This document shows positions 4,265 to 57,858 of a DNA stretch of 64,000 nt, one piece after another. The DNA comes from Candidatus Dormiibacterota bacterium (GTDB lineage: Bacteria; Chloroflexota; Dormibacteria; Aeolococcales; Aeolococcaceae), in NCBI GenBank assembly GCA_963718525.1, contig OY970355.1:3072001-3136000 (forward strand), written 5' to 3'. Numbering within the stretch: the first letter of the stretch is position 1; each line of letters begins with the position of its first letter. A program made the position numbers and the translations under genes. Below the pieces are notes generated by a model that searched no databases, was not told the DNA's origin, and saw only the letters and a program-made list of their open reading frames with translations.

Positions 4265-4340
4265 TGGCAGGGGCGGCACGACTCGAACGCGCGACCCTCG
4301 GTTTTGGAGACCGATGCTCTACCAGCTGAGCTACGCCCCT
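4265..4340 (-). tRNA. tRNA-Trp (CCA)
   Basis: 76-nt cloverleaf AGGGGCGTAGCTCAG...CTCCAAA...GTTCGAGTC...CCCCTGCCA with encoded CCA. Confidence 0.97.
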
Positions 4341-11473: not shown

Positions 11474-11607
11474 GCGCCAGCCTCTCCTTTGATCGCAGCG
11501 AACTGCGCGCCCGTTGTCGTCCCTTCTGGTGCCGCATAATCTGAGACACGCCAACCAGAACGTCTGTCCCGCAGCGCACATAGGTCGATGTCACCACGAG
11601 TGGAGGC

Positions 11608-20069: not shown

Positions 20070-20404
20070 GCCTTAACGCCAAGGTGTACGAGCGCCCATT
20101 CACCGAGCGCCATCAACGCGGGCCGGAGCGCCTCGCCGCTCGGAGTCAGCCGGTAGAGCGACGCGATCGGCGGGCCCTCGATCACCTCGCGGGTCACGAG
20201 GCCCGCTTCCTTCAGTTCGGTGAGCCGGGCGGACAGCATGCTCTCGGTGATCCCGGGGATCGCCCGGACGATCTCGGCGAAGCGGGAGGGGCGCTCGAGC
20301 AGCACGCCGATCACCAGCCCAGTCCAGCGCTTTCCGAGCACTGCGAACACCGAGGTCAGGGCTTCATCGCAGCGCGGCGCGGAAGTGGCACGACCCGGAT
20401 CCAT
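20066..20404 (-). CDS. HxlR family winged-helix regulator
   Basis: LGKRWT, MLSARLTEL, YRLTPSG. Confidence 0.92.
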   Translation of the reverse strand: MDPGRATSAPRCDEALTSVFAVLGKRWTGLVIGVLLERPSRFAEIVRAIPGITESMLSARLTELKEAGLVTREVIEGPPIASLYRLTPSGEALRPALMALGEWALVHLGVKA

Positions 20405-22625: not shown

Positions 22626-25600
22626 TCAGCCGGCATCCCTGGACGCACCGCTGTTGAGAGCGCCGGCCGGACCGGGCATAAGCTCGTCGCGGAGCGCCGC
22701 ACTCGCCAGAACGAACTCGGCGTCCACGCTGTCGATCATCCGGGCGTCCTCGCCTGCATCGCCTGCCCTCGCGCGGGCCTGCAGCTCGCCGCAACGAGCA
22801 GCGAGCGCGCCGGCGCCGAAGCTGCTTGCGCTTCCCTTGAGACTGTGGGCGAGCTTGACCATTGCCGTGGTATCACCGTTCGCCTGCGCGACGCGGAGGT
22901 TGTCGACGCGCGTCTGGCCGTCCCTGAGGAAGAGGCGCACCAGCTTGTCGAACTCTTCGGTCCCGAGCTCGCGCAGGCCGGTCACGTAGGTCTGATCGAG
23001 CAAACCCGGTAACGCATCACTCGTGAATGGGGTCTGGTCGCGATGGGTGTCAGGATCGGTCCACAGCGTGACCATGGCCGCGAGCTTGTCGGCCTTGACG
23101 GGCTTGCTCAGATACGCATCCATTCCGGCGGCAAGGCACTTGTCCTGGTCACCTGCCATCGCACCCGCGGTCATCGCGATGATGACGGTGTGGCGGTCCG
23201 AGGCCTCGCGCCTGCGTATCTCGCGCGTCGCCTCGAAGCCGTCCATCTCCGGCATCTGGCAGTCCATCAGGACCGCGTCGTACTTGACTCGACCCAGCGC
23301 CGCGAGCGCGCCGATACCGTTGTCGGCGATGTCCACGACGTGGCCCATCTTCTCGAGCATACGAACAGCGACGCGCTGGTTCACGGGGTTGTCGTCCACG
23401 ACGAGGAGCCGCGCACGCGATGCGGAGCTGACCTCGGTGAATGAGTATCGAATGCTGTCGGTGATGACTCGACCGGCCGCCTCGGGATCCGGCGGCGCCA
23501 GCAGCGTGGCCAGGCACTCGTAGAGATCCGTGATCCGTGCGGGCTTGGTCAGGAAGGCACGAACTCCCGCGTCCGCAGCCGCCTGCGTGTCCCCCGGACC
23601 GGAGGACGATGTCAGCAGGATGAGGCCGACGCCGTTGATCGCCGGATCGCGTCCGATACGCATGGCAAGCTCGATCCCGTCCATCTGCGGCATCTGGTAA
23701 TCAAGGATCGCCAGGCGATACGGATCGCCGGCCTCAACGGCGTGCCGGAGGCCCGCCAGTGCATCCGCACCGCTCTCGAAGCTCGCGGATCGCGCCCCCC
23801 ACACCCTGAGGTTCTGTTCGAGAATCACGCGATTCGTCTTGTTGTCGTCGACGACGAGGACGCGGATGTCCTGCAGTGCCGCTCGGGACGGCGCCGGCCG
23901 CTCCTGAGCCCGGGCTCCGGCTTCGAGCGTGAGGGTGAACCAGAAGGTGCTGCCTTTACCTGCCTCACTCACGACGCCGACCTCACCGCCCATCCGTTCG
24001 ACAAGCTTCTTGCAGATTGCCAACCCGAGACCGGTCCCACCGAATCGCCGGGTCGTCGACGCGTCCGCCTGGATGAAGCTCTCGAAGAGACGCCTCTGCT
24101 GGGCGGCATCGATGCCAATCCCGGTGTCGGTCACCTCGAACCGCAGATCGATGGCCTTACCGCGCTCCGCCTCCTTGCGCACCCGGAGGATCACCTCGCC
24201 CGTGTCGGTGAACTTCACCGCGTTGCCCAGCATATTGATGAGAATCTGCCGGATCCGGCCGGGATCGCCTCGAACCCGCATGGACATCTGCGGATCGACC
24301 ATCACAGCGAGCTCGAGATCCTTCGCGTCCGCTTTCGGGGCGATCAACTTTGCTGCCTCTTCCACAACCATGCGGAGGTCGAAGTCGATCACCTCGATGT
24401 CGATCTTGCCCGCCTCGATCTTGGAGAAATCGAGGATGTCGTTGATGACCGTGAGCAGCGACTCCGCCGACTGGCTGATCGCCTCAGCATATTCACGCTG
24501 TTCGGCGTTCATCGTGGTCGTGAACAGCAGGCCGGTCATCCCGATCACGCCGTTCATCGGCGTGCGGATCTCGTGGCTCATGTTCGCGAGAAACTCGGAC
24601 TTCAGGCGCGACGCCTCCATCGCCTGCGCGTGAGCGACCGCGAGATCATCCTCGGTCCGCTTGCGCTCTGTGATGTCATTGAACGTGATCACCGCGCCGG
24701 TCGCCTCTCCCGTTACCGCGGCCTCGTCGACGATCGGGAAAGCGGAGTACTCGGCTGGGAACGAATTTCCGTCGCTCCGCCACATGACCTCCGTTGCGAC
24801 GCGGCAGCTCCCGCCGCCATGCATCGCCTTGTAGATGGGGCTGTCGGTGAACGCGATCGCCGACCCATCCGCTCGGTTGTGGTGAAAGAGCGGATGCGTG
24901 AGCTCTCCCATCACTTTGGAGATGTCAACGCCGAGCGCTCCCGATGCGGCGGTATTCATGAAGGTACAACGACCGTCGGCATCGATCCCATAGATTCCCT
25001 CGCCCGCCAACTCGAGCAGCATGCGGAGGCTGTTGGAGAGGCGCGTCCGCTCCACGTCGGCCGCGAGGTTGTCGCTCCGCAACTGGTCGGAGAGGCTGCT
25101 GAGCCCGACCGCGCCGGCGAGCGGGGGTACGAGAATGCGCGCCCGGTCGGACTCGACGCGAGTGAAGTGCGTCTCTCCCGAGCTGCGCAGCACCATGACG
25201 GCGCCGATACTCTCCCCGCCACTCACCATCGGGATTGCCATGACCGGTCCCGCCCCGGTCAGATCGCGGTACGCGATCGTATCCTTACCCCAGGATTCCG
25301 AGTGCAGGTCACCGATGAAGATCTGGCCGGTATGCACCGCCCGGCGGCTTGGTGAGTCTCCCGCGACGACGGACTCCTCGACGGCCGGGTGTCCATCCAC
25401 GATGCGCAACCCGCTCGGGTCGAGCAGGCTGATGACGATCCGTTCGGCGCCGAGCAACTTTGCCACATGCGCGAGAAGCCCCTTGTCGAGGACCTCGGAC
25501 TGTTCGACGCGCCCACTCAGGCGGTCGACCGTCACGCGCTGCCATGCGGCAAGGAACTGCGCGAGCTCGTCGACCTCGTCTCGGAGTGTGATCCCAGCAG

Positions 25601-25736
25601 AGGCCGACGTGGTCGCGACCATCGTCGACGTCCGAACGACCCGGAATCTGCGGCTGATCAGACCGATGGCTCCGACCAACAGCACCCCGCACACCACCGT
25701 GGCGAGGACCGAGACGAGAACTGCGACGAGAATCAC
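22626..25736 (-). CDS. Hybrid histidine kinase TM-GAF-PAS-HisKA-HATPase-REC-REC-HPt
   Basis: FLANMSHEIRTP, GGTGLGL, two REC domains, AHSLKGSA; GTG start after GGAGGT. Confidence 0.95.
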   Translation of the reverse strand: MILVAVLVSVLATVVCGVLLVGAIGLISRRFRVVRTSTMVATTSASAGITLRDEVDELAQFLAAWQRVTVDRLSGRVEQSEVLDKGLLAHVAKLLGAERIVISLLDPSGLRIVDGHPAVEESVVAGDSPSRRAVHTGQIFIGDLHSESWGKDTIAYRDLTGAGPVMAIPMVSGGESIGAVMVLRSSGETHFTRVESDRARILVPPLAGAVGLSSLSDQLRSDNLAADVERTRLSNSLRMLLELAGEGIYGIDADGRCTFMNTAASGALGVDISKVMGELTHPLFHHNRADGSAIAFTDSPIYKAMHGGGSCRVATEVMWRSDGNSFPAEYSAFPIVDEAAVTGEATGAVITFNDITERKRTEDDLAVAHAQAMEASRLKSEFLANMSHEIRTPMNGVIGMTGLLFTTTMNAEQREYAEAISQSAESLLTVINDILDFSKIEAGKIDIEVIDFDLRMVVEEAAKLIAPKADAKDLELAVMVDPQMSMRVRGDPGRIRQILINMLGNAVKFTDTGEVILRVRKEAERGKAIDLRFEVTDTGIGIDAAQQRRLFESFIQADASTTRRFGGTGLGLAICKKLVERMGGEVGVVSEAGKGSTFWFTLTLEAGARAQERPAPSRAALQDIRVLVVDDNKTNRVILEQNLRVWGARSASFESGADALAGLRHAVEAGDPYRLAILDYQMPQMDGIELAMRIGRDPAINGVGLILLTSSSGPGDTQAAADAGVRAFLTKPARITDLYECLATLLAPPDPEAAGRVITDSIRYSFTEVSSASRARLLVVDDNPVNQRVAVRMLEKMGHVVDIADNGIGALAALGRVKYDAVLMDCQMPEMDGFEATREIRRREASDRHTVIIAMTAGAMAGDQDKCLAAGMDAYLSKPVKADKLAAMVTLWTDPDTHRDQTPFTSDALPGLLDQTYVTGLRELGTEEFDKLVRLFLRDGQTRVDNLRVAQANGDTTAMVKLAHSLKGSASSFGAGALAARCGELQARARAGDAGEDARMIDSVDAEFVLASAALRDELMPGPAGALNSGASRDAG

Positions 25737-25779
25737 TGTGAGACCTCCACGATCACGACGGATGTTGTTGGCGATGCAA

Positions 25780-27520
25780 TCAACGGGCTGACAGGGCGAA
25801 CAACTCACCCCGTCTCCGAATCGCGGCGGTGACCCGGCTCACCAGGTCACGCGGGCTGAAGGGCTTGACCATGTAGTCGTCGGCTTCCAGTGAAAAGGCC
25901 ATGACCTTTTCGCTGGGACCTGCGTCGCCGGTGAGAATCACGATCGTGGTCCGCTGGTTGGCCGGGTCATCCCGAAGGATCCTGCACACGTCGAAGCCGC
26001 TGATCCCAGGCAGATTCACGTCGAGGACAACGCAGTCCGGCTTGAAGTGACGCGCCATCGTGACCGCGTCCTCGCCGCTTGCAGCCTCTCTGACCTCGAA
26101 TCCGACTGCAGCCAGAACTCGACCGCGCCAGCTGGCGGACGTCATCGGCATCATCGACGACCAGGACCTTTCCGATGTGCGCACTCTCCGAGTGCTTTCG
26201 TCCTTGCTGCGCGGTTCCTCCGACGTACGCCCGCAACTCGGCGCTGAGCCGCTCATCGATGGCGGCCGCCGATGCGGGTCGTGCAAAGAAGAATCCCTGC
26301 GCCTCGTCGCACCCCAGTGTCCGGAGCCTGACAACCTGATCGGCGGTCTCGACACCCTCGGCAACCACCCGGAGATCGAGGGCGTGCGCCATGCCCATAA
26401 CGGCCGCGACGATGGCCGTGGCTTCGAAGTCGCGTCCGAGGCCGTCGACGAACGACTTGTCGATCTTGAGCTCGTCGAGGGGAAACCTTTTGAGGTACGC
26501 GAGCGATGAGAACCCGGTGCCGAAGTCGTCGACTGAGATGCTCAGCCCGAGTGATTTGAGCTCGCGGAGCGTGGCGACCGCGAGCTCAGCGTCCTGCATG
26601 ACCATGCTCTCGGTGACCTCGAGGCATACCGTTGCGGGGTCGATCCCTGATCGCCCGATGATGCCGCCGAACGTCTCGGCGAGACCTGATTCGAACTGGC
26701 GTGGCGAGACGTTCACCGCGACCTGCAGGGGCTGGCCGCCGGGAAGCGCGGTGCGCCAGCGAATGGCTTCGCGGCACACCTGCTCGAGCACCCAGGCGCC
26801 GATTTGGACGATGATTCCCGACTCCTCCGCGAGCGGTATGAAATCGAGTGGTCCGATCAGTCCACGCTCTGGATGCAGCCAGCGCAGGAGCGCCTCGACG
26901 CCGACAGTCCGGTCGGTGACGAGCGAGACCTTGGGCTGATAGTCAACGTAGAACTCCCCATTGATCAGCGCACTACGAAGCGATGCCTCATTCGCGATTC
27001 CGACCAGCCGCAGTGACGGCATCGTCCCGGTGAACAGCGGGTGATGTCCTGCACCACGTTGCGCATGGAAGGCGTGTTGGTCTTCCGGATGCCGGCGATC
27101 GCTGATGTCGTGCCAGACGGTGATCGCGCCGAGCAGCTCACCCGCGGCGTCGAAGAGCGGTTCGCTGTCGACGATCATCGTCCGCCGCTCTCCGGACGGG
27201 GCGACGAAGATCATCTCCGTGTCGCGCGCGATTTCCCCTCTCAGCGCCCTGCTCACCGGCCCGGCACCGTCGCCAATCGGCCGGCCGTCGATGTCGAGCA
27301 TCGACCCGTAGGCCGACCAGTGCTCGGGGAGGCTCGCATCCGCATCAACGCCGGCGAACGTCTCCATCGCGCGGTTGGCCAGGGTGACCCGGCCACGGGG
27401 ATCACAGACGGCGACGAGGTCATGCATGTTGCCGAACACCGCCCGCGCGAATTTCGTGTCCGGAAGGGCCGGATCGGCGATAGGCCCCGGCGTCTTGAGC
27501 CGGCGGGGCTCACCTCGCAT
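25780..27520 (-). CDS. PAS-EAL-REC phosphodiesterase with an apparent frameshift near 26117
   Basis: VEALLRW, DDFGTGFSSL, KIDKSF; REC begins in ORF 25967-27520 (VLVVDD) and continues in ORF 25780-26364 (VLDVNLP, VKPF). Confidence 0.85.
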
Positions 27521-27877
27521 CGTTGCACCTCCGAACGGTCGCGTCGCAACGGCATCGCACGCCCAAGCTCAGAGCATATGGGGGTCGCCTGAGACCGCAC
27601 GGCTTGTAACCGAATGCACACACCTGACGAGCGATGTCGCAGCAATCAGCGCGAGCTGGGGCGACCAACCCGCGTGCGGCAGGTGAACGCGATGAGGTTG
27701 TGCAGCCGATCCCTCACCGCGAGCACCGCCACATGTATTCATTCCACTTCCGACAACGCAAAGTTGCTCTTCTGGAAGCTCGACGGTCTGTTCGATGGCG
27801 TACATAGCCGGGCGCTGTTCCACACTGTCACAACTACGCGGTGGGCGCACGTTCGCGCCGCGGCTAGGCTCGATCAC

Positions 27878-29422
27878 ATGATCAGCCCGCCGACGTACAG
27901 CCTGCGGGACCTTCGCCAGTCACTCGGAGCGTACCAGAACGCGTCTGCGATCACGAGCGTCCTTCAGCTGGCGATCGACGCGCTCAACCTTGAGGTCGTC
28001 ACACTCATGCGTCACGGCGAGGCGGTCATCTCGCTGCATGCTTCACCGCGGTCCGCCACCGTGGCAGCGCATCAGCAGCACCTGCAGACGAGCGACGCGG
28101 CATCCACGCCATTGGTCGGACCGTGCATCGTGCTTCCGGCGGGCGGTCTGCGCTCGCGCAGGGAGAGCACGCTGCGCTTCGAGCGAGCCGCGGGATCGCC
28201 GTTCAGCGTCCACGACCGGGCGATCGCAGAGGTGATCGCGTCCGCGGTCGTCTATACCGAGGCGGGCATCGGCCTGCTGATGCGTGATGGTGGATGGGCT
28301 CGTGCCGAACGCGATGACGAGGAAAGCGGACGGTTGCGGAAGATGCTCCGCGACCGCGACGCATTGCTCGATCAGCTTTCCGCCATTCAGCGCGCGCTGT
28401 CCCAGCGGGCGCCTCTCCAGCACATCCTTGACACCATCGTTGCGGCTGCGGTCGAGCTCATCGGCGATGAGACCGTGAACCTGCGCCTCCGCGATCCCGG
28501 CGATCCGGCTCTTCTCCTCAGGGTCGCCGGGTGCGGGTACTCCGCGGAGGTGGAGCCGTTGATGATGCGGATCCGAACCGATGAGGGCGCGGTCGGGCGG
28601 GCGTTCACCGAAGGCAGGCTCGTGGTCATCGAGGACTATCAGAACGACGAGAACCGGCTCCCAGTGCTCGCCGGCGAGGGCCTCGAGGCGGCGATGTCCG
28701 CACCGGTCGAGGAGAACGGCCGCGTGATCGGTGCGCTCACCGTCGCCACCCACCGCCACGGCCGCACCTACAGTCTCACCGAGCAGCAGATGCTGATCAC
28801 GTTCGCGGTGCACGCGAGCGTCGCGCTCACCAATGCGCGCATCGCCAACTCGATGGCACACCTCGCCTTTCACGATGCACTGACCGGTCTCCCCAACCGC
28901 GCCCTCTTCGTGGATCGCCTCGGACAGACGCTGGCTCGCGGCGGTCGCAAGATCCGGATGACAGCCGTGCTGTTCGCCGACCTCGACAACTTCAAGGCGG
29001 TCAACGACAGCCTCGGTCATGCGGGTGGCGACGAACTGCTCGTCGTTATCGCTCGGCGGCTCCGGGAATCGCTCCGCCCTTCCGACAGCGCGGCTCGCTT
29101 CGGCGGTGACGAATTTGCCATCCTGCTCGAGGACATCGGCACCGAGCGACGGGCCATCAGTGCATGCGAGCGCATCATCGCGTCGCTGGTTGCGCCGGTG
29201 ACGATTCAGGGACGAACGATCGACCCTCGAGCGAGCTTTGGTGTCGCATTGAGCCACGACACCACCCGTGACGCGGACGGCCTTCTGCGCGACGCGGATG
29301 TTGCGATGTATGCGGCCAAGGCCGCAGGCAAAGGCACCTACAAGCTCTACGCGCCCGCGATGCACGCTCAGGCCGGCATCCGGCTGCAGTTCCATGCCGA
29401 CCTCATGCAGGCGCTCGACTGA
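27878..29422 (+). CDS. GAF-GGDEF diguanylate cyclase
   Basis: HDALTGLPNR, RPSD, GGDEF, ADVAMYAAK; TAGGCT 7 nt before the ATG. Confidence 0.9.
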   Translation: MISPPTYSLRDLRQSLGAYQNASAITSVLQLAIDALNLEVVTLMRHGEAVISLHASPRSATVAAHQQHLQTSDAASTPLVGPCIVLPAGGLRSRRESTLRFERAAGSPFSVHDRAIAEVIASAVVYTEAGIGLLMRDGGWARAERDDEESGRLRKMLRDRDALLDQLSAIQRALSQRAPLQHILDTIVAAAVELIGDETVNLRLRDPGDPALLLRVAGCGYSAEVEPLMMRIRTDEGAVGRAFTEGRLVVIEDYQNDENRLPVLAGEGLEAAMSAPVEENGRVIGALTVATHRHGRTYSLTEQQMLITFAVHASVALTNARIANSMAHLAFHDALTGLPNRALFVDRLGQTLARGGRKIRMTAVLFADLDNFKAVNDSLGHAGGDELLVVIARRLRESLRPSDSAARFGGDEFAILLEDIGTERRAISACERIIASLVAPVTIQGRTIDPRASFGVALSHDTTRDADGLLRDADVAMYAAKAAGKGTYKLYAPAMHAQAGIRLQFHADLMQALD

Positions 29423-32700: not shown

Positions 32701-33119
32701 CCGGCGTCTCGCCCTGTTGCGGCAGATGGCGACCGCAATATGAATCCGGACAGGATCAGCGCATTGACGACGATGGTGACAGCTCCTGGAATCGGTGTCG
32801 TTGCAACGACAATCCACACCAATCCTAGGACGATCCACAGGCAGCAGAACACGAGCGCATTGGTACGCGCCGCAGCCGCGCCACGATGTACTGCTCGAGC
32901 TGTCCAGATCCCCCAAGAGCCGGCGCCGACCATTGCCGCGCCCGCACCGACGGCCCAGCCGGCGACCACGCTCCCAAACCCTGGTTCGTCGACATTGACG
33001 ACCCCAGGGAGCCCGGTGCCGCCACGGAGAACGATGAGCCCACCCGCGATCAGCAGCGCACCCAGCAGAACCCATGCCGCGCTCTCGATCCAGAGCAGCA
33101 CCCGCGCCAGCTGACGCAT
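32697..33119 (-). CDS. Hypothetical 4-TM membrane protein
   Basis: MRQLARVLLW...; coupled by TGATG and ATGA overlaps to both neighbours. Confidence 0.75.
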   Translation of the reverse strand: MRQLARVLLWIESAAWVLLGALLIAGGLIVLRGGTGLPGVVNVDEPGFGSVVAGWAVGAGAAMVGAGSWGIWTARAVHRGAAAARTNALVFCCLWIVLGLVWIVVATTPIPGAVTIVVNALILSGFILRSPSAATGRDAG

Positions 33120-34240
33120 CAGGTGTGTCCGCGTCCGGCAACGCCGTCCAGAACGATGCCAAGCGCCGCCATGAGGCCGCCATCCGCCGGCGTCGCGGGC
33201 TCGGCGACCGGTGGCGGCACCCCCTCGGCTGCTGATTGGTCGAGGCTCACCCGCACCGCGCCGCCGCTCACCTCGAGCTCGTAGCGATCCGGCGTGGTGG
33301 CGGCCCCGGGCGTCTCCCACCGAGTGTCCGCTATGGCGACGCGATTGTGGAAGTCGTCGAGATCCACTTGAACCGCGCCGCTCTTGAGCACCGCCGACAC
33401 CGCAGTTCCCGCGAGCCGCTGCAGTGAGACGCGGAACACGCCGCTCGAGATGTGGATCGGGACGACCCCTCGCGGACGCGGCAGCAGGCAGTCGACCTTG
33501 CTGGCGCTGCTGTCCATCTGGATCTCGCGTAGGTTGATGCCGCGCAGGTCGAGGTGCGTGTTCCATGTCGGACCCTGGACCTGGATTCGCCACGGATGTG
33601 CCGGGTTGATCTCGATCTCGCCGCGCTTCCCGCCGCGAAGCCTCCGGACGATCACGCGCTCCCCGCGCACCACGGTGGTGGGTGGCGCCACCGTGCCCTG
33701 GGGGATCCGGAAGAGTTCTTCCATTGAACCGCTCGCCTGGACGACGACGCCACGCGACCCCGAATCGATGGCGAGCGTGATCGTCGTGCCGGGTCCCGAC
33801 GCCCGATCGACTGGGCTCGTGGACGGTTGCGCCGCCACGAACCCGATCATCATCGCTGCCACGTCCGCAGCCGTCGCCGGGTCGACGCCGCCCGCGACGA
33901 TGGCCTTCGCAAGTCGGGCATGGACGGCGCTTCGCCGGATGGCTCCGGGAACCTCGTGCAGGATCCGATCCCCGTCGCGCTGACCGGCGATCTGTGCGGC
34001 GGTGGTCGCGCACAACGTGAGCGCCGCACGGCGCCAGTCGCGTCCTCGATCGGGCTGCGGGACCCGCGCCAGGAGCGCATCGGCGACGATCTCGAGGAGT
34101 TCACCGCGATCCCGAACGTGCCAGTACAGCGACGCTGCCTTGACCCCGCTCCGGTCCGCGAGCGTGCGCATCGTGAGCCCGTCCAGGCCGTCCTCCTGGA
34201 TCAGTTCAAGCGCGCTCTCCGCGAGGGTCGCGCGGTTCAT
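33119..34240 (-). CDS. TetR family regulator carrying an inserted beta-rich domain
   Basis: GLDGLTMRTLA..GVKAASLYWHV HTH; about 170 aa extra beta-strand domain. Confidence 0.88.
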   Translation of the reverse strand: MNRATLAESALELIQEDGLDGLTMRTLADRSGVKAASLYWHVRDRGELLEIVADALLARVPQPDRGRDWRRAALTLCATTAAQIAGQRDGDRILHEVPGAIRRSAVHARLAKAIVAGGVDPATAADVAAMMIGFVAAQPSTSPVDRASGPGTTITLAIDSGSRGVVVQASGSMEELFRIPQGTVAPPTTVVRGERVIVRRLRGGKRGEIEINPAHPWRIQVQGPTWNTHLDLRGINLREIQMDSSASKVDCLLPRPRGVVPIHISSGVFRVSLQRLAGTAVSAVLKSGAVQVDLDDFHNRVAIADTRWETPGAATTPDRYELEVSGGAVRVSLDQSAAEGVPPPVAEPATPADGGLMAALGIVLDGVAGRGHT

Positions 34241-34301
34241 GCCCGCCGGATCGGCTTGTTCATTCGAAACCTGACTCCCTGATCGTACCTGGCGCCATCA
34301 C

Positions 34302-34359
34302 TTGACACACTAACATCGTTAGGGGTACATTTGCCGCCACATCGACCTAACAACGTTAG
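34302..34359 (+). promoter_or_regulatory. Sigma70-type promoter with two TetR-type operators CTAAC-N3-GTTAG
   Basis: TTGACA 34302-34307, TACATT 34326-34331; palindromes at 34310-34322 and 34347-34359. Confidence 0.8.
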
Positions 34360-34375
34360 CTCAGAAGGATCGCCG

Positions 34376-34537
34376 ATGGCACACCACCTGCTCGTACTCG
34401 CCCTGATCTGGATCGCCTTCGCGGGCGTGGCCGGAACGGTCGCTGCAGCCGGTGCCGGACAGCGAGCGGTCGGCGCGGTCTCGACAGGCGGCGTGTTCCT
34501 CGCCGTCATCGGCTCCCTGTTGGTGTTCTTCGCGTGA
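34376..34537 (+). CDS. Small 2-TM membrane protein
   Basis: 53 aa, hydrophobic, RBS AAGGA, GTGA overlap with the ABC ATPase. Confidence 0.7.
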   Translation: MAHHLLVLALIWIAFAGVAGTVAAAGAGQRAVGAVSTGGVFLAVIGSLLVFFA

Positions 34538-35523
34538 CCGCCGCCACCCCGGGATCCCTCGCCATCGAGGCCGCGCACCTCGAAAAGCACTACGCGAAGA
34601 CCATTCGCGCGCTGAGCGATCTGAGCTTTCGCGTGGAGCGCGGAACCATCTTCGCGCTGCTCGGACCCAACGGTGCCGGCAAGTCCACGGCCGTGAAGAT
34701 CCTGACAACGATGACCCGGCCGGATGCCGGCACCGCTCGCGTGGCAGGCATCGACGTCCTCGCCAACCCACAGCGCGTGCGTCGACTCATCGGGTGCGTC
34801 GCACAAAAGGACGCTGTCGACCTGGAGGCGACGGGCCGCGAGAACATCAGCCTGCAGGGACAGCTGTATGGCATGGCACACGGAGACCTCCGTCGCCGCA
34901 CTGCTGCGCTGCTCGACCAGTTCCAACTCACCGAGGCCGCCGACCGCGTGTCGCGCACCTACTCGGGCGGCATGCGCCGCAAGCTCGGTGTCGCCATGGG
35001 CCTCGTCCACAGCCCGGAGGTGCTCTTCTTCGATGAGCCGACGACGGGGCTGGATCCCGAGGCTCGGAGCGGCCTCTGGGGCGAGATCCACAGGCTCGCG
35101 ACGCGCGACGGAGTCACGGTGCTGCTGACCACGCATTATCTGGATGAAGCCGACCATCTCGCCCAGCGTGTGGCGATCATCGATCAGGGCCGTGTCGTCA
35201 CCGAGGGGACTCCGGACGAGCTCAAGAGTCAGCTGCGCGGCGATGCGATCAACATTCAGCTCGACGCCGACGCAGCCGTCGGTGCTGCGATTCGCGCGCT
35301 GAGCACGCGGAACGGGCGCCTGCGCCAGCTGACCGGCGAAGGGCGATCCGTACATGCCCGTGTTGACGACGGCGCCAGCTCGGTGCCGGAGGTGCTCGCC
35401 GCCCTCGATGCAGCCGGCGTCATGGTGACCGCCGTCACCGTGTCCCGCCCCTCACTTGACGACGTGTACCTCAGCCACACCGGGCGCAGTTTCAGCGCCG
35501 CCCACGCCGGAGAGCCGCGATGA
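34534..35523 (+). CDS. DrrA-like ABC exporter ATP-binding protein
   Basis: GPNGAGKS, YSGGMRRKL, DEPTTGLD, TTHYLDEA, SLDDVY. Confidence 0.95.
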   Translation: MTAATPGSLAIEAAHLEKHYAKTIRALSDLSFRVERGTIFALLGPNGAGKSTAVKILTTMTRPDAGTARVAGIDVLANPQRVRRLIGCVAQKDAVDLEATGRENISLQGQLYGMAHGDLRRRTAALLDQFQLTEAADRVSRTYSGGMRRKLGVAMGLVHSPEVLFFDEPTTGLDPEARSGLWGEIHRLATRDGVTVLLTTHYLDEADHLAQRVAIIDQGRVVTEGTPDELKSQLRGDAINIQLDADAAVGAAIRALSTRNGRLRQLTGEGRSVHARVDDGASSVPEVLAALDAAGVMVTAVTVSRPSLDDVYLSHTGRSFSAAHAGEPR

Positions 35524-42100: not shown

Positions 42101-43344
42101 CTACACGTCCGCCCGCTGCAGGAGATGCGGACCGTATCTCATCGCCGTCGACCGGCCCGTGCCGTCAGTCGCGAAACTCACCTCTTCACCGAAGTGTCCG
42201 TAGTCGTCACCACCAATCTCGCCGCGGTAGTGGCCGGCGAGCCGACCAACACTCGCGCGGGAGTGGCCGTGCGCCGTTTCGGCGGCATCGGCCCATCGAC
42301 GCACCACCCACGCGGCGCTGTGGAAGTTGGGATGGTGTCGAGCGCCATGCCCGGCACCGGACCGTTGGTGTTGTTCAGGACTGCCGCGGCGTGGCCCCAC
42401 TCCGGTGAGAATCCGATCTTGGTGGTGAATCCGGGAAACCCGCCACTGTGACCGCGGATGGGGATGCCGTCGACGTGCCAGATCATCCACCCCAGTCCGT
42501 GGTGGGGCTCCTCGTGACGCTGCCACTGCGTCCGTTGCATCTCGCGTCGCGACAGGTCCGAGATGAGCTCACCCGACCCTGGGAAGTGCGCCTGCTGATA
42601 CGTGAGCAGGTCAGGCACCGTCGAAACCAGGCCGCCGGCAGGAGCGAAGGCGCGCGCTTCGGCATGGCGCGCGGGATGCGGATCCTCTCCGGGACGTCCT
42701 TGGGAGTAGCCGGTGGCGAGCGTTCTCCGGGCGCGAGGAATCAACGACGGGGCGCTCCCTTTCAAGCCGAGCGCCCGCAGGACGTCTCGTTGCAGGAGGG
42801 CCTCAAACGGCCTGCCGCTGACGGCCTCGAGCGCCTCACCGAGCAACACGTAGGCGATATTCGAGTAGCGGAATGACGTCGCCGGCTCCGCGAAGGTCAG
42901 CCGCTGACGCACCTCCTTGCGCACCGTGTCTCGATCCGGGAAGTCGTCATCGCCCCACGTGTTGGACCCGTCGCGAATCACGCCGCCGCCGTGAATCAGC
43001 AGGTGCCGAATGGTGATGTCCCTCGCATGGGGCAAGCGCCTGATCCAGCTCAGGTAGGTCGCGATGGGCTCATCGAGTCGCATCCGTCCGGCCTCGACCT
43101 GCTGCATCACCAGAGTTGCCGTCATCGTTTTGGTGATCGACGCGCAGCGGTAGCTCGTCGCATCGGGAGTCGTCGGGCGACCCGACGCAATGTCGGCGGT
43201 GCCCATCGCGTCGAGCATGACAGCGCGAGCGCCATGGCTGATCCCGAACGAGATTCCAGGAACGCCCCAGCGCATCGCCTGGTAGCGAATCCACCGCCGG
43301 GCGACCTCCGCCGCATCGGCAAGCTGGCGGGGTGCGATGTTCAC
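42101..43344 (-). pseudogene. Beta-lactamase-family serine hydrolase with a frameshifted C-terminus
   Basis: SxxK (ASITK), YSN, HSGG; after ALDTI near 42325 the protein-like sequence continues in another frame to the TAG at 42101. Confidence 0.7.
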
Positions 43345-45663: not shown

Positions 45664-45816
45664 CTATTGCTTGCGAGGAGGGCCTTCGGGAGCGTCGGTC
45701 TCGGCCGAGCGGTCGGGATCCGGCACCTCCGGCTGCTCAGGATCGGGATCCGCGATCTCCGGCTCGGGCAACGGCTCGGGCGTTGAACTGGGGGTCGGGG
45801 TCATGGGAATATTCAT
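45664..45816 (-). CDS. Small acidic Pro-rich protein, leaderless
   Basis: TACACT 6 nt before the ATG; 50 aa rich in P/E/D. Confidence 0.5.
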   Translation of the reverse strand: MNIPMTPTPSSTPEPLPEPEIADPDPEQPEVPDPDRSAETDAPEGPPRKQ

Positions 45817-45876
45817 ACTGGGAGTGTATCTACCTGTACCTAACGATGGGCGTCTATCTGATATTGTCGCTATCAA

Positions 45877-46392
45877 ATGAGCACCACCCGCGTCACCGAT
45901 GTCATCCGAATGGACCACGTGTGGTTCCGCAATCAGTTCACCGCGCTCGGTGACGCGCGCGGCGATGTTGCGCGACTGACTTCGATCTGGGCCGCGCTGT
46001 CAACTCGCCTGGAGGTGCATGCGGCGGCCGAGGAGACGCTCTTCTACCCGCGGTTGCTCAAGGACGACCCCGATGCGGTCGATGACACCAAGGATGCGGT
46101 GAGAGACCACAACGAGATCCGAGACGCGATACGCAACGCCGAGGGGCACAGCGTCGGGGACGATCGATGGTGGCACGCGGTCAACGACACCGAGAAGGCC
46201 AACGACGAGCACATGGACGAGGAAGAACAAGGTCCGCTGCTCGAGTTCGACGATGCTGCGTCCACCGCCGAGCAGGCTGAGCTCGCGTCCGCATTCACGG
46301 CGTTTGAAGCAGAGCATGCAGGGGCTCGGGGTATAGCGGTAGTTGACAAGGACCCGGACGAGTACGTCGAGGAGATCATCGACGAGAGCTGA
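45877..46392 (+). CDS. Hemerythrin/HHE domain protein
   Basis: DH, HAAAEE..FYP, DHNE, HMDEEE. Confidence 0.9.
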   Translation: MSTTRVTDVIRMDHVWFRNQFTALGDARGDVARLTSIWAALSTRLEVHAAAEETLFYPRLLKDDPDAVDDTKDAVRDHNEIRDAIRNAEGHSVGDDRWWHAVNDTEKANDEHMDEEEQGPLLEFDDAASTAEQAELASAFTAFEAEHAGARGIAVVDKDPDEYVEEIIDES

Positions 46393-46413
46393 TCCGGTAC
46401 GACGACGACACAG

Positions 46414-46468
46414 CCGTATAGCTTGTCTGGCAGCTAAGTTGACACGACTGGTGCCGGGTCACTAAGCT
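46414..46468 (+). promoter_or_regulatory. Promoter of candidate sRNA 1
   Basis: CCGTATAGC-N16-TTGACA-N18-TAAGCT. Confidence 0.65.
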
Positions 46469-46474
46469 CCTGAG

Positions 46475-46566
46475 GTCGACGGTCGAGAGGTCGTCGTCCC
46501 CACCCCCTCCCAACGAGTCCACCCCGCCGGGATCAAGGTCCACGGCGCGGGTGGACTCTTCGGTTT
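46475..46566 (+). ncRNA. Candidate sRNA 1 (hairpin, C-rich seed, terminator hairpin)
   Basis: GACGGUC-GAGA-GGUCGUC hairpin, CCCCACCCCCUCCCAAC linker, GAGUCCACCC...GGGUGGACUC-UUCGGUUU; no convincing ORF. Confidence 0.55.
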
Positions 46567-46571
46567 CGCGG

Positions 46572-47708
46572 TCAGGCGAGTGGGAGGACGACGGTGAACG
46601 TGCTCCCGCCACCCGGGGTCGCGGTGACCGCGATGTCGCCCCCGTGGAGCCGAGCGGTCTCACGGGCCAGGTAGAGGCCGAGGCCGGTCCCGCGAATGTG
46701 GCTGGTTTCAGGCGTCACCAGGCGGCCGAACCGGCTGAAAAGCAGATGCGCCTGCTCGGCGTTGATGCCGATCCCGTGGTCGCGAACGACGATGCTCATG
46801 GCTCTGCCGTCATCTTCGCAGCCGATCTCGATCGTCCCACCCGCAGGCGAGTATTTGATCGCGTTGTCGATGAGGTTGGTCAACATGGTGGTGAGGCGGC
46901 GGCGGTCGGCGACAACGGCCACCGAGTCGCGCTGCGTGGTCACAGCGAACCGGTGCTCTTCGCTCATCAGCGGACGCATCGACTGCACGGCATCCTCAAT
47001 GACCCTGAGCAGGTCCAGGGGTTCGAGCTCGAGCTCGAGTCCGAGGGTCTCGAGCCGGGCGGTTTCAAGCATGTCTGAGATCAGTCGCGCCATCTCTTCG
47101 GCCTTCTCGGTGATGCGGCTGAGCGCCACGCGTCGCTCTGCAGGAGGCAACACCCCCTCGCCGAGCATCGATGAGTACCCCCTGATGATTCCGAGAGGGC
47201 TTCGAAGCTCATGCGCGGCGATGTTCAGGAACTCGCTCTTGAGCCGCTCGAGGCGCCGGCTGCGTTCGGCCTCCTGGAGCAGCTCGTCGGCCATCGCGGC
47301 CTGGCTGACTCCGTGACCAACGATGCCGGCAAGCGACTGCAACGTGCCGCGAGCATCGGCGCTGAGTCGGCCCTCGCCGCTGACGACGAGGAGCGCGGCG
47401 ACTCTCTCGTCGCCCCGCACCGGCACGATGACGGCGGGCGGGTCGTCGACAGTCAGGCCCGACGAGATCGCTCGGTCGAATGCAGGGTGGTCGCTGACGC
47501 GATAGGGCCCGCGAGCACTCGGCTCGACGAGGTCCGATGCCGCGACGCACGCCAGAAAATCGCCGCGGAGCAGGAGTAGCCAGGCTTGGCGGGAAATTCC
47601 AGGGGCGGATGCCAGCCGTGAGGCGAGCCTGACCGCTTCGCGGAAGAGCCGGCGCGACGCGTCATCCTGGGTGCCGGGGTCATCCGTAATGGGCGCCGGG
47701 TCCTGCAC
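46572..47708 (-). CDS. GAF sensor histidine kinase
   Basis: AAHELRSP, NAIKYS, GTGLGL; start 47708 or 47765. Confidence 0.92.
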   Translation of the reverse strand: MQDPAPITDDPGTQDDASRRLFREAVRLASRLASAPGISRQAWLLLLRGDFLACVAASDLVEPSARGPYRVSDHPAFDRAISSGLTVDDPPAVIVPVRGDERVAALLVVSGEGRLSADARGTLQSLAGIVGHGVSQAAMADELLQEAERSRRLERLKSEFLNIAAHELRSPLGIIRGYSSMLGEGVLPPAERRVALSRITEKAEEMARLISDMLETARLETLGLELELEPLDLLRVIEDAVQSMRPLMSEEHRFAVTTQRDSVAVVADRRRLTTMLTNLIDNAIKYSPAGGTIEIGCEDDGRAMSIVVRDHGIGINAEQAHLLFSRFGRLVTPETSHIRGTGLGLYLARETARLHGGDIAVTATPGGGSTFTVVLPLA

Positions 47709-48123
47709 GGCGGCGAGCGCCTGCTTCAGCTTGCGGTTGGGAGCGAGGCGCGATCGCTCGTTCAACGCTCTCGGCGAGCTGCGCCGGAGTGGTGTCGGCC
47801 TTGACCAGGAACTCGAGCGCGCCTAGCTTCATGCCTCGTTCTCGGAGCTCGGGTTCGCCGTAGTTGGTGAGGATGATCACCGGGATGTGCATGGTCTCGG
47901 GGGCCGAGCGAAGGCTCTCCAGCACTTCGAATCCATCGAGGCCCGGGAGACGGAGATCGAGGTAGATGAAGTCCGGAGCTTCGTCTGCGGCCAAGCGCAG
48001 GCCTTCCTTGCCATCGCGACCAATCACCACCGAATAGCCGTCGGCGACAAGTCGCAGCCGATACATCTCCGCTGCGGCGACGTCGTCCTCAATCAGCAGG
48101 ACCTTGACGTCATCCTCCAGCAC
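47680..48123 (-). CDS. Single-domain response regulator
   Basis: LLIEDD, IYLDLRLP, ILTN, FLVK; RBS GGAGGA. Confidence 0.92.
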   Translation of the reverse strand: MLEDDVKVLLIEDDVAAAEMYRLRLVADGYSVVIGRDGKEGLRLAADEAPDFIYLDLRLPGLDGFEVLESLRSAPETMHIPVIILTNYGEPELRERGMKLGALEFLVKADTTPAQLAESVERAIAPRSQPQAEAGARRRAGPGAHYG

Positions 48124-53036: not shown

Positions 53037-53381
53037 TCAGACCTTCACGTGCTCGACGTCGATCTCTGTCAGTTCGGCGGGACGCGGGACCCCATGCGCA
53101 TCGAGCAGCTGGAGACAGAGGATCAGGTAACGGGCGCTGATCAGATTGAGCCCGTATCCGCGAGTGAGTCGCTGAATCGCGCCAAGGGTGATGATGTCGC
53201 GCTGCGAGTACAGTCGACGGTTGCTGGCAGTCCGGCTGGGGACGACCAGGCCGAGATGCTCGTACATCATGAGCGTCCGCGTATGCGTGGCAAGGATTTC
53301 CGCCGTGATGCCGATCGTGTACAGGGGCTTGTCGAGGTTCAACATCTTGACCTCGCTGGTCGGAGCTGCCGCGCGTGTCAT
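53037..53381 (-). CDS. HspR/GlnR-like MerR family regulator, copy 2
   Basis: LDKPLYTIG...RTLMMYE...NRRLYSQRD...CLQLLDAHG. Confidence 0.9.
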   Translation of the reverse strand: MTRAAAPTSEVKMLNLDKPLYTIGITAEILATHTRTLMMYEHLGLVVPSRTASNRRLYSQRDIITLGAIQRLTRGYGLNLISARYLILCLQLLDAHGVPRPAELTEIDVEHVKV

Positions 53382-53401
53382 CTGTGACGACGAATCCGCA
53401 A

Positions 53402-54376
53402 CTACGCTGCGCGACGCCTGGCGTGCACGCGCAGGCGCACCACCGATCCCATCTCGCGCGACGAGCGCAGTTGCACGAGATCACAGAGCTGGTTGGCGGT
53501 CCAGAGGCCGCGTGCCCGAGTAGGATCCGCACCCGGCTGCTGCCGGTCGACAAGCGGGTCGCTGATCACGCCACGATCGGAGATCTCGCATACAACATCG
53601 CCATCGTCGAACCAGATCCGCGCGACGCCGCTCCCGGCGCCGTGGGTGACGCTGTTGGTTGCGACTTCGCTGACCGCGAGAATGAGGTCGTCAAGCCGTG
53701 CGGCGGAAAGCCCGGCGCGGGCGCCCTGAGTCGCGACCAGCGCGCGCAGTTCTCCGAGCGTGGCCGCTGTGAAGGACATCTCGGCGACGACCGTGGCGGG
53801 AGGCGCGAACGGCGATGAACGCGGAGCGCTTGGAGCCTGAAACTCCTCGCGACCACCGTCGCGTTCCGCCGAGACGGCCCCGCGGCTGTTGCCGATCACG
53901 GGGTGCGTCGTCCGCGCACCCTTGATGACTTCTGGATCGAGACCGGCGACGTCATATGGGCAGATCAGCCAGAAGCCTTGCACGCCGGCAAACGCCCGGT
54001 TGATGAGGGCCTCGTGCCACTGGCATTCCTCGAGGTGGACAGCAGAGCGACCAGGCCAGATCGGCTCGCCGACTCCGCGCATCCGCACGGCACCGGAGTG
54101 AGCGCCCGCGACAGCGAATTCATCCCACGCTGGAATGATCCGCGCGGGGTTCGCCCCGACGATCCGCATGTCGCGATATTCGACGAGCCCATCGTCGACG
54201 CCGCCGACACGCGCGCGGAGCGCGTCGATCTTGGGACCGCTGACCATCACCAGAGTCGGGTCCCCGGCGGCGATGCCATCGGTGATGAACTGCGCGACGT
54301 TTTCGACGAACTCGCTCTCATCTCTGTAGAAAACGGCCTCGTGGCGGAAGTCCGCGATGCTCGTGTTGCTGCTCAC
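53402..54376 (-). CDS. MEDS domain + RsbW-like HATPase (anti-sigma/Ser kinase)
   Basis: FRHEAVFY, NPARII, GEPIW, CPYD; SEVATNS..HG, DRG, RGLW. Confidence 0.9.
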   Translation of the reverse strand: MSSNTSIADFRHEAVFYRDESEFVENVAQFITDGIAAGDPTLVMVSGPKIDALRARVGGVDDGLVEYRDMRIVGANPARIIPAWDEFAVAGAHSGAVRMRGVGEPIWPGRSAVHLEECQWHEALINRAFAGVQGFWLICPYDVAGLDPEVIKGARTTHPVIGNSRGAVSAERDGGREEFQAPSAPRSSPFAPPATVVAEMSFTAATLGELRALVATQGARAGLSAARLDDLILAVSEVATNSVTHGAGSGVARIWFDDGDVVCEISDRGVISDPLVDRQQPGADPTRARGLWTANQLCDLVQLRSSREMGSVVRLRVHARRRAA

Positions 54377-55326
54377 CTCGCTCCCCCAGCTCCGGTGTCG
54401 GCTGGGGCTGCAGATGCGTTTCGCACGAGCCCGGCAGCGCTCATCGCTCGCTGAAGACGCGGCTGGATGCCGCGCAGCGTCACGTGTCCCGCAGCCTCGG
54501 CCGCGACGAGCATGCGCAGGCCGGCGACCGAGCAGAAGGTGACCGCGGAGAGATCGATGGTGACCGCAGGGTGGCTGCCCGTGGCGTTCTCGATCGCTTC
54601 GCCCAGCGCATCGATGTTCGCCTCGTCGATGCTTCCCACCAGACTCAGATTCGGGCCGTGGGAGTGCGAGATCAGCAACCCTGCGGTCGCCACGACATCA
54701 CCCTCATGCGCTCCCCCGAAACCCTCGGGTCGGAGGATCGAATCTTCGTCCGCCGACGGCAGGTCGAGGCGCGAGCTGTGCTGCCATTCGCCGAGCACGT
54801 GCGCGGCGCGCGCCGTGAGATCGATCGGTGAGTAGCCGATGTCGGCGATCCGATCCGCATACTTTGTGATGAACGCGCTGAACTCCGCCACAAACTCACG
54901 GACCACCGCCGCGAGCGCGGCTCGTGCTGCGCGATCATCCGCTGGGGCCGCGAGCGCGGCCGCCTTGGCAGTGATCAATTGCCTGAGCGAATCCGGGTAG
55001 AGCCGCTCGAACTCGGCGTTGAGCGTCCGCAGCACCTCGATCCGTCCCGGTCCCATCATCGCTAGCCAGCGCATCCTCTCGAGGTCGGAACCGAGTGCGC
55101 AGCGCGGGTAGAACTGATTCGTGGCGAGCTCGCCAACCATGAGATGTGCGCACGCGACATGCGTTCCGAGCGGCTTTCCATAGGAGGTGGCCGCGATGAA
55201 CTGCGCACGTTGAAACGCGGGGCAGTCGGGGCTCAAACTGTCGAAGCTAGGACCGAAACGGCACCGATCTCGTGGCTCCTGGTCCTTCGATGTGCGTGCC
55301 ATCTGGCGCTTGGAAAGAATGGCCAT
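54373..55326 (-). CDS. Cys-containing unknown domain fused to STAS (anti-anti-sigma-like)
   Basis: C-terminal GSIDEAN..IDLSAVTFCSVAGLRML; N-terminal C..CPAF..CAHL..YPRC; GTGA coupling to the MEDS gene. Confidence 0.8.
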   Translation of the reverse strand: MAILSKRQMARTSKDQEPRDRCRFGPSFDSLSPDCPAFQRAQFIAATSYGKPLGTHVACAHLMVGELATNQFYPRCALGSDLERMRWLAMMGPGRIEVLRTLNAEFERLYPDSLRQLITAKAAALAAPADDRAARAALAAVVREFVAEFSAFITKYADRIADIGYSPIDLTARAAHVLGEWQHSSRLDLPSADEDSILRPEGFGGAHEGDVVATAGLLISHSHGPNLSLVGSIDEANIDALGEAIENATGSHPAVTIDLSAVTFCSVAGLRMLVAAEAAGHVTLRGIQPRLQRAMSAAGLVRNASAAPADTGAGGAR

Positions 55327-55392
55327 CGAGCCAGCTCAGGCCGGCACGCGGTCGATCATGATAGTGAGTGTATACCGTGCGGCCAGCCGCCG

Positions 55393-55480
55393 AGAAGAGC
55401 TACCACCCCGGCCGGGGATGACCCCCGGCAGGGTGGGCTTTGGGGAGGGAAATTCGAATGCCGGTGGAATAATCCACCCA
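55393..55480 (-). ncRNA. Candidate sRNA 2, homologous to sRNA 1
   Basis: GGUGGA-UUAU-UCCACC hairpin, UUUCCCUCCCCAAAG linker, CCACCCUGCCGGGG..CCCCGGCCGGGGUGG hairpin, CUCUUCU. Confidence 0.55.
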
Positions 55481-55486
55481 GAGGTG

Positions 55487-55541
55487 ACTCTATCAGCCTG
55501 GTAGACCTGCTGTCAAGCAAACTTATAACATGGCTATACGG
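55487..55541 (-). promoter_or_regulatory. Promoter of candidate sRNA 2
   Basis: CCGTATAGC-N16-TTGACA-N18-TAGAGT on the minus strand. Confidence 0.65.
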
Positions 55542-56613: not shown

Positions 56614-57858
56614 CTAGGCGCCGTGGGGCACCGGCTCGGTGTGCACCCCCTCCTCCTCCACCGCTCCGACCTCTTCCCCGAGCCGGGGCAGGCTGTCGAC
56701 GCTGACCGAGTCGCCGGGGGTCGTGGTCATAGGCTCCTCACCGCGCCTGGCGCGGTAGAGGGCTCCCAGGAAAATGTTGCCCACGGCTGCGATGGGAACA
56801 GCGAAGAGCGCACCCAGGATTCCCGCCAGCTCGGCACCGACGAGCAGCGCCGCCATGGCCACCAGGGCGTGGAGGCGCGTCACCCGGCCGTAGATCCGAG
56901 GCCCGAGCAGGTACGCGTCGATGGCATGGCCGGCTAGGCCGATGCCGCCCGCGAAGAGTGCGAGTGCCGGACTCTGCACCAGGGCCACCAGAACGGCGAG
57001 CGCCATGGCCACCACCGCGCCGACGATGGGAATGAACTCCAGGAAGAACGCGGCAATGCCGATGAGAATCGCGTATCTGACGCCGATGAGAGTCAGCGCC
57101 ACCCCGGTGTACGTCCCGATGATGAACGACATCACCACCTGCCCGCGAACGTATGCGGCAACCGTCGATCCGATCGCGAGCGCCGCAAAGTCGAACTCGC
57201 GCTGATGATTGGGAGCGAGGTTGCGTGCAGTTGCGACCACCGCTCGTCCTTCGATGAGGAGGTAGATCGAGATGACCACCACCAGTACGACACTCACCAC
57301 TCCCGAGACGAACGCTGCGACAACGCCGAGTGCCACGCCGATCTGCTGACCGTTCAGGGTGTTGATCAACGATGTGAATGAGTAGGAAATCCCGTGCTGT
57401 CGCAATTGATTCTCGATCGTCGAGAGGAGCATCGGCAGCTGCTTCGCCTGCGCGATCACGGTCGGAAGCACCAGCACGATTGCGCCGGCAATGATCGCGA
57501 TCCCGACCCCGTAGAGCAGCAGCACCGCGAAGGAACGATGGCCGCGAAACGGTCGGATCCGCTCCATCGCGTCCACGAGCGGAGTCAGGATGAGTGCGAG
57601 GATTCCTGCGAAGACGAAGAGCAGCAGAACATTGAAGATGTGGACGAGGATGAATGCCGCACCTTCGAAGATCCAGATGAGCGCCAGGATGATCCCCAGC
57701 CATACCAACGCTTTCAGGGAGCGGCTTTCCCAGAGTTGGGAGCGCATCGACCGGCTCGCCGAGGCCGCCTGTGATCGTCGCGGCGTGGCGCCGTCCTTGG
57801 CCGCGCGCCGCCGAGCAGGTGACGAGGATGCGGTTCGCTTAGACGGAGACGTGCTCAA
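56614..57858 (-). CDS. AI-2E (PerM) family transporter
   Basis: YVRGQ, EFIPIVG, GALFAVP; multiple TM segments. Confidence 0.9.
   Translation of the reverse strand: MSTSPSKRTASSSPARRRAAKDGATPRRSQAASASRSMRSQLWESRSLKALVWLGIILALIWIFEGAAFILVHIFNVLLLFVFAGILALILTPLVDAMERIRPFRGHRSFAVLLLYGVGIAIIAGAIVLVLPTVIAQAKQLPMLLSTIENQLRQHGISYSFTSLINTLNGQQIGVALGVVAAFVSGVVSVVLVVVISIYLLIEGRAVVATARNLAPNHQREFDFAALAIGSTVAAYVRGQVVMSFIIGTYTGVALTLIGVRYAILIGIAAFFLEFIPIVGAVVAMALAVLVALVQSPALALFAGGIGLAGHAIDAYLLGPRIYGRVTRLHALVAMAALLVGAELAGILGALFAVPIAAVGNIFLGALYRARRGEEPMTTTPGDSVSVDSLPRLGEEVGAVEEEGVHTEPVPHGA

Follow-up and report, generated by a model that had tools for sequence, protein, structure and literature searches.

The 64,000-nt stretch of DNA that was analysed (hereafter the window; G+C = 66%) carries at 45877–46392 on the plus strand a gene for a 171-aa hemerythrin-domain protein (Pfam PF01814, E = 1.2e-13). 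Among 529 candidates, 429 relatives of this protein were found at E ≤ 0.001; relatives were 64–94% identical to it, and the closest named organism among the matches listed was Candidatus Dormiibacterota (two matches). Converging on the hemerythrin gene is a histidine-kinase gene with HisKA and HATPase_c domains (46572–47765, minus strand) that is syntenic in relatives, and the 179-nt gap between the two genes (46393–46571) houses a compact module, referred to here as element 1, for which the hemerythrin gene is the syntenic anchor. The response-regulator gene adjoining element 1 encodes a receiver domain without a DNA-binding domain, and its product therefore cannot be the activator of the element-1 promoter. 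Elsewhere, the window contains a dense signalling cluster (8693–29422) that includes four GGDEF and/or EAL proteins with PAS/GAF domains (8693–11581, minus; 15855–18368, 20643–22610 and 27614–29422, plus), an EAL-PAS protein (25967–27520, minus), a hybrid kinase of 1060 aa with two receiver domains and an Hpt domain (22626–25808, minus) and a Crp-like regulator (11608–12375, plus). A wax-ester synthase/diacylglycerol acyltransferase gene (WS_DGAT, E = 1.5e-67) lies at 14176–15657 on the minus strand.

Read along the plus strand, element 1 opens with the 9-mer CCGTATAGC (46414–46422), a candidate regulator site ending 16 nt 5′ of a −35 hexamer, TTGACA (46439–46444), which sits 47 nt 3′ of the hemerythrin stop codon and outside the coding sequence. 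An 18-nt spacer leads to a −10 hexamer of the TANNNT type, TAAGCT (46463–46468). The predicted sRNA transcript of ~92 nt (46474–46566) has its start placed at 46475, a purine located 7 nt past the −10, and its 3′ end would fall within a U-containing tail. Its parts are a 5′ hairpin (46477–46496; 8-bp stem 46477–46484/46489–46496 with a GAGA loop at 46485–46488), an 18-nt C-rich linker predicted to be unpaired and presumed to be the seed (UCCCCACCCCCUCCCAAC; 46497–46514), and a GC-rich hairpin of 19 bp resembling an intrinsic terminator (46515–46558), followed by the tail UUCGGUUUC to ~46567. The seed is a single tract of three C-blocks (CCCC-A-CCCCC-U-CCC) with CCUCC inside it; neither hairpin has a long or C-rich loop (GAGA and CAAG in the window).

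The first-pass annotation had described a near-consensus promoter, TTGACA-N18-TAAGCT. The motif is present exactly in that form, and the −35 merits the description; the −10 does not, as it agrees with TATAAT at 3/6 positions, and a sigma-70 consensus scan of 45800–47200 called no promoter, this one included. Expressed as TTGACR-N17/18-TANNNT, the window contains three instances of the pattern where 0.20 would be expected, a count reached in 0/100 shuffles. The site that belongs to neither element 1 nor its sibling (described below) is TTGACA-N18-TACATT within 34302–34537 (plus), which drives a 53-codon hydrophobic ORF (34377–34537, ATG at 34377) with AAGGA before the ATG, is divergent from a TetR-family gene (33119–34240, minus) and is flanked by two operator-like palindromes, CTAACATCGTTAG and CTAACAACGTTAG. 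Judged by this context it is an ordinary gene promoter, and promoters of this type thus seem to be in normal use here. A minus-strand ORF called mechanically at 34237–35355 is probably spurious.

The proposed succession of hairpin, linker and terminator was recovered by folding 46470–46566, which gave a minimum free energy of −51.5 kcal/mol against −37.8 ± 3.7 for shuffles (z = −3.74; 0/200 as low) and left the linker unpaired; the GAGA loop that formed part of the proposal is found in the window and is not kept in relatives. A terminator scan flagged a site at 46537–46557 (1 found against 0.4 expected), and the tail that follows contains U but is U-poor. A C-rich 17-mer sought with up to 3 mismatches gave 1 match against 0.29 expected, and at least one was present in 28/100 shuffles, so that the C-run taken alone is within chance expectation.

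Element 1 had been presented as unannotated, and comparison with all 4227 Rfam 15 families using cmscan matched it to no known RNA family. At gathering thresholds, the only match in the whole window was a tRNA (4268–4340, minus). At E ≤ 10, the sole match on 46300–46700 was ASdes (13.7 bits, E = 3), which lies on the minus strand inside the kinase gene and is unrelated; the copy in the related locus L003 gave only sub-threshold microRNA-model noise, and the sibling element gave nothing relevant. BLASTN of the element against plasmid and phage collections found no match, and the 1.9-kb locus shared with plasmids only a 101-nt similarity in the kinase gene, in two Streptantibioticus records. Element 1 belongs neither to the 6C family, which we take to be RF01066, nor to RsaE/RoxS, presumably RF01820: the 6C covariance model did not match it and its C-runs do not occupy at least two hairpin loops, while the RsaE/RoxS model returned no match either at E ≤ 10 or at the gathering score.

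A genome scan with a hemerythrin alignment that included 30 of 120 listed relatives yielded 80 loci. Thirteen of these (L001–L013) encode hemerythrins 64–78% identical to that of the window and were taken as Dormibacterota relatives; hemerythrins of the remaining 67 are 39–49% identical, and 65 of those loci are titled Actinomycetota (L031 and L057 are otherwise titled). Element 1 lies directly 3′ of the hemerythrin stop in 7/13 Dormibacterota loci (L001–L006 and L012), which are the closest relatives, with hemerythrins 73–78% identical. A covariance-model search of related genomes, as the first-pass annotation had suggested, found no element 1 at E ≤ 1 in the other six: in L008, L009, L010 and L013 the hemerythrin and kinase genes still converge, across a short gap that lacks the element-1 module, and L007 and L011 have different genes beside hemerythrin. 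The window copy and the seven others make up 8 copies, all from one clade, and the covariance model built from them (R1) scores 66–112 bits on these same copies (highest in L012, 111.5 bits). R1 gave no match at E < 0.01 in the 67 further loci, of which L031 and L057 were additionally scanned with filters off.

Conservation of the terminator alone had been named as the pattern that would speak against an sRNA gene, and it is not the pattern observed: both promoter hexamers and the C-rich linker are kept across the 8 copies, whereas the spacer, loops and flanks drift. Mean pairwise identity is 0.96 in the −35 (TTGAC invariant in 8/8) and 0.89 in the −10 (TAAGCT in six copies, TAGTCT and TAGGCT in one each), against 0.56 in the promoter spacer and 0.44 in the 30 nt upstream. 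Spacer length is nonetheless constrained, at 18 nt in 7/8 copies and 17 nt in the other, and a purine stands 7 nt past the −10 in 8/8. Within the RNA, identity is highest in the terminator arms (0.88 and 0.90) and lower in the hairpin-1 arms (0.72 and 0.76), the linker (0.74), the tail (0.56), the terminator loop (0.43) and the hairpin-1 loop (0.37). The linker is G-free and 17–20 nt long, keeps the core CCACCCC(C)UCCC(C) in 8/8 copies and has a mean probability of being unpaired of 0.70–0.98 in every copy. GTATAGC, the 7-nt core of the upstream 9-mer, is kept in 4/8 copies (the window, L001, L004 and L005). Across the transcribed region as a whole, identity is 0.74 versus 0.51 at fourfold-degenerate sites of hemerythrin (7 genomes; L012 was omitted as its frame is broken), and on this comparison the region is evidently under purifying selection.

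The RNAalifold consensus of the 8 copies consists of two hairpins flanking an unpaired linker. In the MAFFT alignment, 96.4% of 196 cells can pair, compared with 37–54% when partners are slid by 1–3 columns, and 4/25 pairs have changed on both sides, in 8 copies from one clade. The covariation score of this alignment is 0.146 versus 0.111 ± 0.013 for shuffles and was reached by 4/500 of them; an alignment fitted to the model, and hence biased towards the structure, gave 97.4% paired cells and 0/500. Both shuffle tests involve only 8 related sequences, whose kinship can outscore shuffled columns without any structure. Changes on both sides affect 3/8 pairs of the 5′ hairpin, where 100% (model-fitted) or 96.7% (MAFFT) of cells remain paired, and one compensatory pair of the terminator hairpin (C-G to G-C). 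G-U cells outnumber A-C cells by 10 to 2, which favours the plus strand as the one transcribed.

In L012 the sRNA is complete despite an absent kinase gene and an interrupted hemerythrin frame, which suggests that element 1 is more than a portion of the genes around it. Within this locus (3001–3720), a stop codon at 3396 interrupts hemerythrin, the length of the tblastn match is not a multiple of 3, and, with the kinase gene missing, it is the response-regulator gene that converges directly on the sRNA. The damage to hemerythrin and kinase could be gene decay or an assembly error, as the genome is metagenome-assembled and indel errors are possible.

These patterns make it probable, with good confidence, that element 1 is a real, transcribed sRNA gene: its promoter and terminator are conserved independently of the neighbouring genes, and it has a conserved seed that is predicted to be accessible and single-stranded. 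The sequence could instead be merely a structured 3′ UTR with a bidirectional terminator shared by the hemerythrin and kinase genes, its promoter unused and without function in trans. No further hairpin was found between the hemerythrin stop (46392) and 46515, so the hemerythrin mRNA probably ends at the element-1 terminator, as this explanation requires; it also fits the greater conservation of the terminator arms than of any other part of the RNA and the failure of the consensus scan to call a promoter. However, a 3′ UTR leaves unexplained the invariant TTGAC, the conserved TANNNT and their fixed spacing of 17–18 nt around a drifting spacer, as well as the covarying second hairpin and the conserved unpaired C-tract. 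It is further at odds with the four loci in which the same convergent genes do without the module, and with the minus-strand reading of the terminator hairpin, which is followed by a G-run and not a U-run. We therefore consider a plain 3′ UTR unlikely.

A diverged sibling of element 1, element 2, lies 9 kb away on the minus strand at 55385–55541. It was detected as the best R1 match in the window outside the two strands of element 1 (55392–55482, 25.5 bits, E = 0.0025; filters off), and surfaced only with the covariance model, as BLASTN of element 1 against the window found no second copy. Its parts follow the same order: CCGTATAGC (55541–55533), a −35 TTGACA 16 nt further on (55516–55511), an 18-nt spacer, a −10 TAGAGT (55492–55487), a predicted 5′ hairpin of 6 bp on the same strand, a linker that includes UCCCUCCCC (55450–55442) and ends in UCCCUCCCCAAAG, and a GC hairpin as terminator (~55436–55403) with a U-containing tail after it. 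Within the window the 9-mer is present at two sites only, once per element and in both cases 16 nt upstream of the −35, against 0.10 occurrences expected; no count of two was reached in 100 shuffles. Given their common architecture, seed core and upstream 9-mer, elements 1 and 2 are probably co-regulated paralogues; that one regulator acts on both is suggested by the 9-mer.

A homologue of element 2 in L008 (505–639, minus; 26.2 bits) shares its footprint and has a wholly different 5′ hairpin sequence that nevertheless still pairs; of these two copies, GTATAGC is present in that of the window and absent from that of L008. The L008 contig, which is recorded as Candidatus Saccharimonadales, encodes a hemerythrin of the Dormibacterota type (65% identity) and carries, besides the element-2 homologue, a fragmentary match to the kinase; mis-binning may account for its taxonomic assignment. 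No gene converges on element 2, which lies upstream of a same-strand STAS-domain gene in both genomes, at a distance of ~70 nt in the window and ~285 nt in L008, and could also be the leader of a STAS operon. The genes 3′ of it in the window (53037–55326, minus) form a probable partner-switching operon encoding a STAS protein (317 aa), a MEDS + HATPase_c_2 protein resembling an anti-sigma kinase (324 aa) and a MerR-family regulator (114 aa).

A loose scan of the window for intergenic C-runs flanked by hairpins found this architecture only in elements 1 and 2. Other candidates were set aside: a C-run at 56644–56662 (plus) is coding, as it falls inside an AI-2E-transporter gene (56614–57858, minus); an R1 match at 24581–24676 (plus; 18.3 bits, E = 0.068) is contained in the hybrid kinase gene (22626–25808); and R1 matches on the minus strand of element 1 (31–39 bits) are a product of the palindromic terminator. 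A MITE or other mobile repeat was ruled out, as there are just two diverged copies, both of them syntenic across species.

Under the favoured reading, element 1 would be transcribed after the hemerythrin stop from its own housekeeping-type promoter (TTGACA-N18-TANNNT), and the sRNA would end at the GC-rich intrinsic terminator that would close the hemerythrin transcript too, a layout corresponding to a 3′-UTR-embedded sRNA with its own promoter. The 5′-terminal hairpin is probably protective, and the functional end of the molecule would be the constitutively single-stranded, G-free C-run linker (CCACCCCCUCCC), which could zip by consecutive G-C pairs onto G-rich single-stranded stretches of mRNA, probably with no need of a chaperone. 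Where such a stretch is a ribosome-binding site of the GGAGG type, pairing would block the 30S subunit, and translation or stability of the message would fall. That the RNA also acts in trans in this manner, through its C-tract on G-rich mRNA sites, is somewhat favoured by analogy with known C-rich sRNAs. Transcription, both RNA ends, action in trans, target class and co-regulation of element 1 are thus all features that we infer.

Duplex scans of the 64-kb window found no target site at a start codon, the best non-self duplex reaching about −31 kcal/mol, and those of the eight 6.5-kb loci found no target site that recurs across genomes; covering only 64 kb and eight 6.5-kb loci, these scans are weak evidence. 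Use of Shine–Dalgarno (SD) sequences was also assessed in the window, where SD-like 4-mers precede 14/128 candidate starts (11%) versus 100/861 internal in-frame controls (12%). TANNNT hexamers 5–9 nt before starts were, in contrast, enriched ~7-fold (7/128 versus 7/861; about 50 predicted genes), with examples at the hemerythrin start itself (45877), at 43586, and at the minus-strand genes 42178–43344 and 20066–20404. Leaderless mRNAs may accordingly be frequent and SDs few in this lineage, and with leaderless-type starts enriched, occlusion of SDs may apply to few genes. Since candidate starts show no excess of SD-like motifs, it is safer to speak of pairing with G-rich sites in general than of SD occlusion, and the 'anti-SD' role proposed for the seed, which is an analogy, is the weakest part of its reading.

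The same observations could also be accommodated by an RNA that does not act by base pairing, with the C-tract binding or titrating a protein (such as a single-strand binder of the KH/CSD type, or Rho) or acting as a decoy for G-rich RNA. The C-tract is G-free and unstructured in 8/8 copies, no local mRNA target was found and SD motifs are not enriched in the window, all of which would suit such a role. However, each RNA offers a single short site of 17–20 nt, whereas known titrating RNAs carry many, and no candidate partner protein is encoded beside element 1 or element 2; the local target search, moreover, was so small that its outcome says little in favour of a protein partner. This explanation is consequently judged to be rather improbable.

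Element 1 might alternatively act in cis on the kinase/response-regulator operon, as a convergent or antisense regulator: read-through kinase transcripts, which would contain the seed's exact complement, would be cleaved or terminated through pairing or through transcriptional interference. Only 5 nt separate the predicted 3′ end of the sRNA from the stop codon of the kinase gene, the seed has a perfect complement within the window only on the opposite strand of element 1 itself (−56.4 kcal/mol), and adjacency to the kinase gene is kept in 6/7 relatives that have the element. Yet the sRNA of L012 is fully intact despite loss of the kinase gene, element 2 is non-convergent and upstream of a same-strand STAS gene, and an antisense role alone needs neither an unpaired seed nor a 5′ hairpin, making regulation purely in cis very unlikely. 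A small protein encoded on either strand can practically be dismissed: in agreement with the first-pass annotation, which saw no convincing ORF in the gap between the convergent genes, no ORF of at least 8 codons on either strand is conserved in frame, length or sequence across the 8 copies, the window copy has no plus-strand start codon before the C-tract, and although a GTG-initiated minus-strand frame starts alike (VDSLGGGG...) in several copies, this likeness just mirrors the nucleotide conservation of the terminator arm and seed, and the frames run to 15, 19, 20, 20, 31 and 38+ codons, with sequences that differ even at 93% nucleotide identity.

As a predicted base-pairing sRNA, element 1 invites comparison with several known systems. 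In enterobacteria, 3′-UTR-embedded sRNAs of the DapZ/MicL type have their own promoters, depend on Hfq and have A/U-rich features. Element 1 is similar to these in that its promoter lies at or just past the end of a same-strand gene and its terminator is probably common to both transcripts, but differs in that the promoter is 47 nt past the stop codon rather than in the coding sequence. Closer in function is the 6C RNA (B11) of the Actinomycetota, which resembles element 1 in its length of ~90 nt, its high-GC organism and its exposed C-runs, and whose C-rich loops, in mycobacteria, bind single-stranded G-rich mRNA sites by multiple G-C pairs, reportedly without a chaperone (PMC6486639). Unlike 6C, in which the C-runs are in hairpin loops, element 1 has its C-run in the linker between two hairpins, and its host phylum is Dormibacterota, with no match in the 65 Actinomycetota-titled loci. 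RoxS/RsaE is described as acting through C-rich regions at or beside the ribosome-binding site and so blocking initiation, and the roxS promoter as having a conserved short box near −65 that is bound by a two-component regulator (PMC4409812). Element 1 likewise has a conserved upstream box, here the 9-mer at about −61 to −53, and its setting beside a two-component system and a hemerythrin (an O2/NO-type sensor domain) is reminiscent of RoxS, a likeness that is suggestive only. In contrast to the four separate C-rich regions of RsaE/RoxS, element 1 has one contiguous C-tract.

A far-reaching extension of the favoured reading would make elements 1 and 2 a family of anti-SD mimics that share a GTATAGC-binding activator, are wired to signalling modules and silence SD-led mRNAs en bloc, these being a minority class in a lineage whose mRNAs seem for the most part to have no SD or no leader. 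We regard this as highly speculative and doubtful on present evidence. If true, the signalling modules would be the hemerythrin/two-component locus and the STAS/anti-sigma partner-switching operon, and a redox or O2 signal, for example at entry into dormancy, would shift translation to leaderless messages.

The Dormibacterota are an uncultured, globally distributed phylum of soil bacteria known only from metagenomes, and the literature that links the phylum with sRNA or small RNA seems to contain no account of a regulatory RNA. As predicted here, element 1 and its sibling represent a new family of sRNAs from this uncultured phylum, functionally nearest to 6C and RsaE/RoxS. The design of a C-rich seed, a G-C zipper and independence from a chaperone would thereby reach past the Bacillota and Actinomycetota, which suggests convergent evolution in high-GC genomes. 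With model R1, further members of the family can be annotated in metagenome-assembled genomes, and a conserved sRNA gene whose promoter and seed are well defined and which has a sibling copy would provide a concrete, testable handle on post-transcriptional control in this Dormibacterota lineage.
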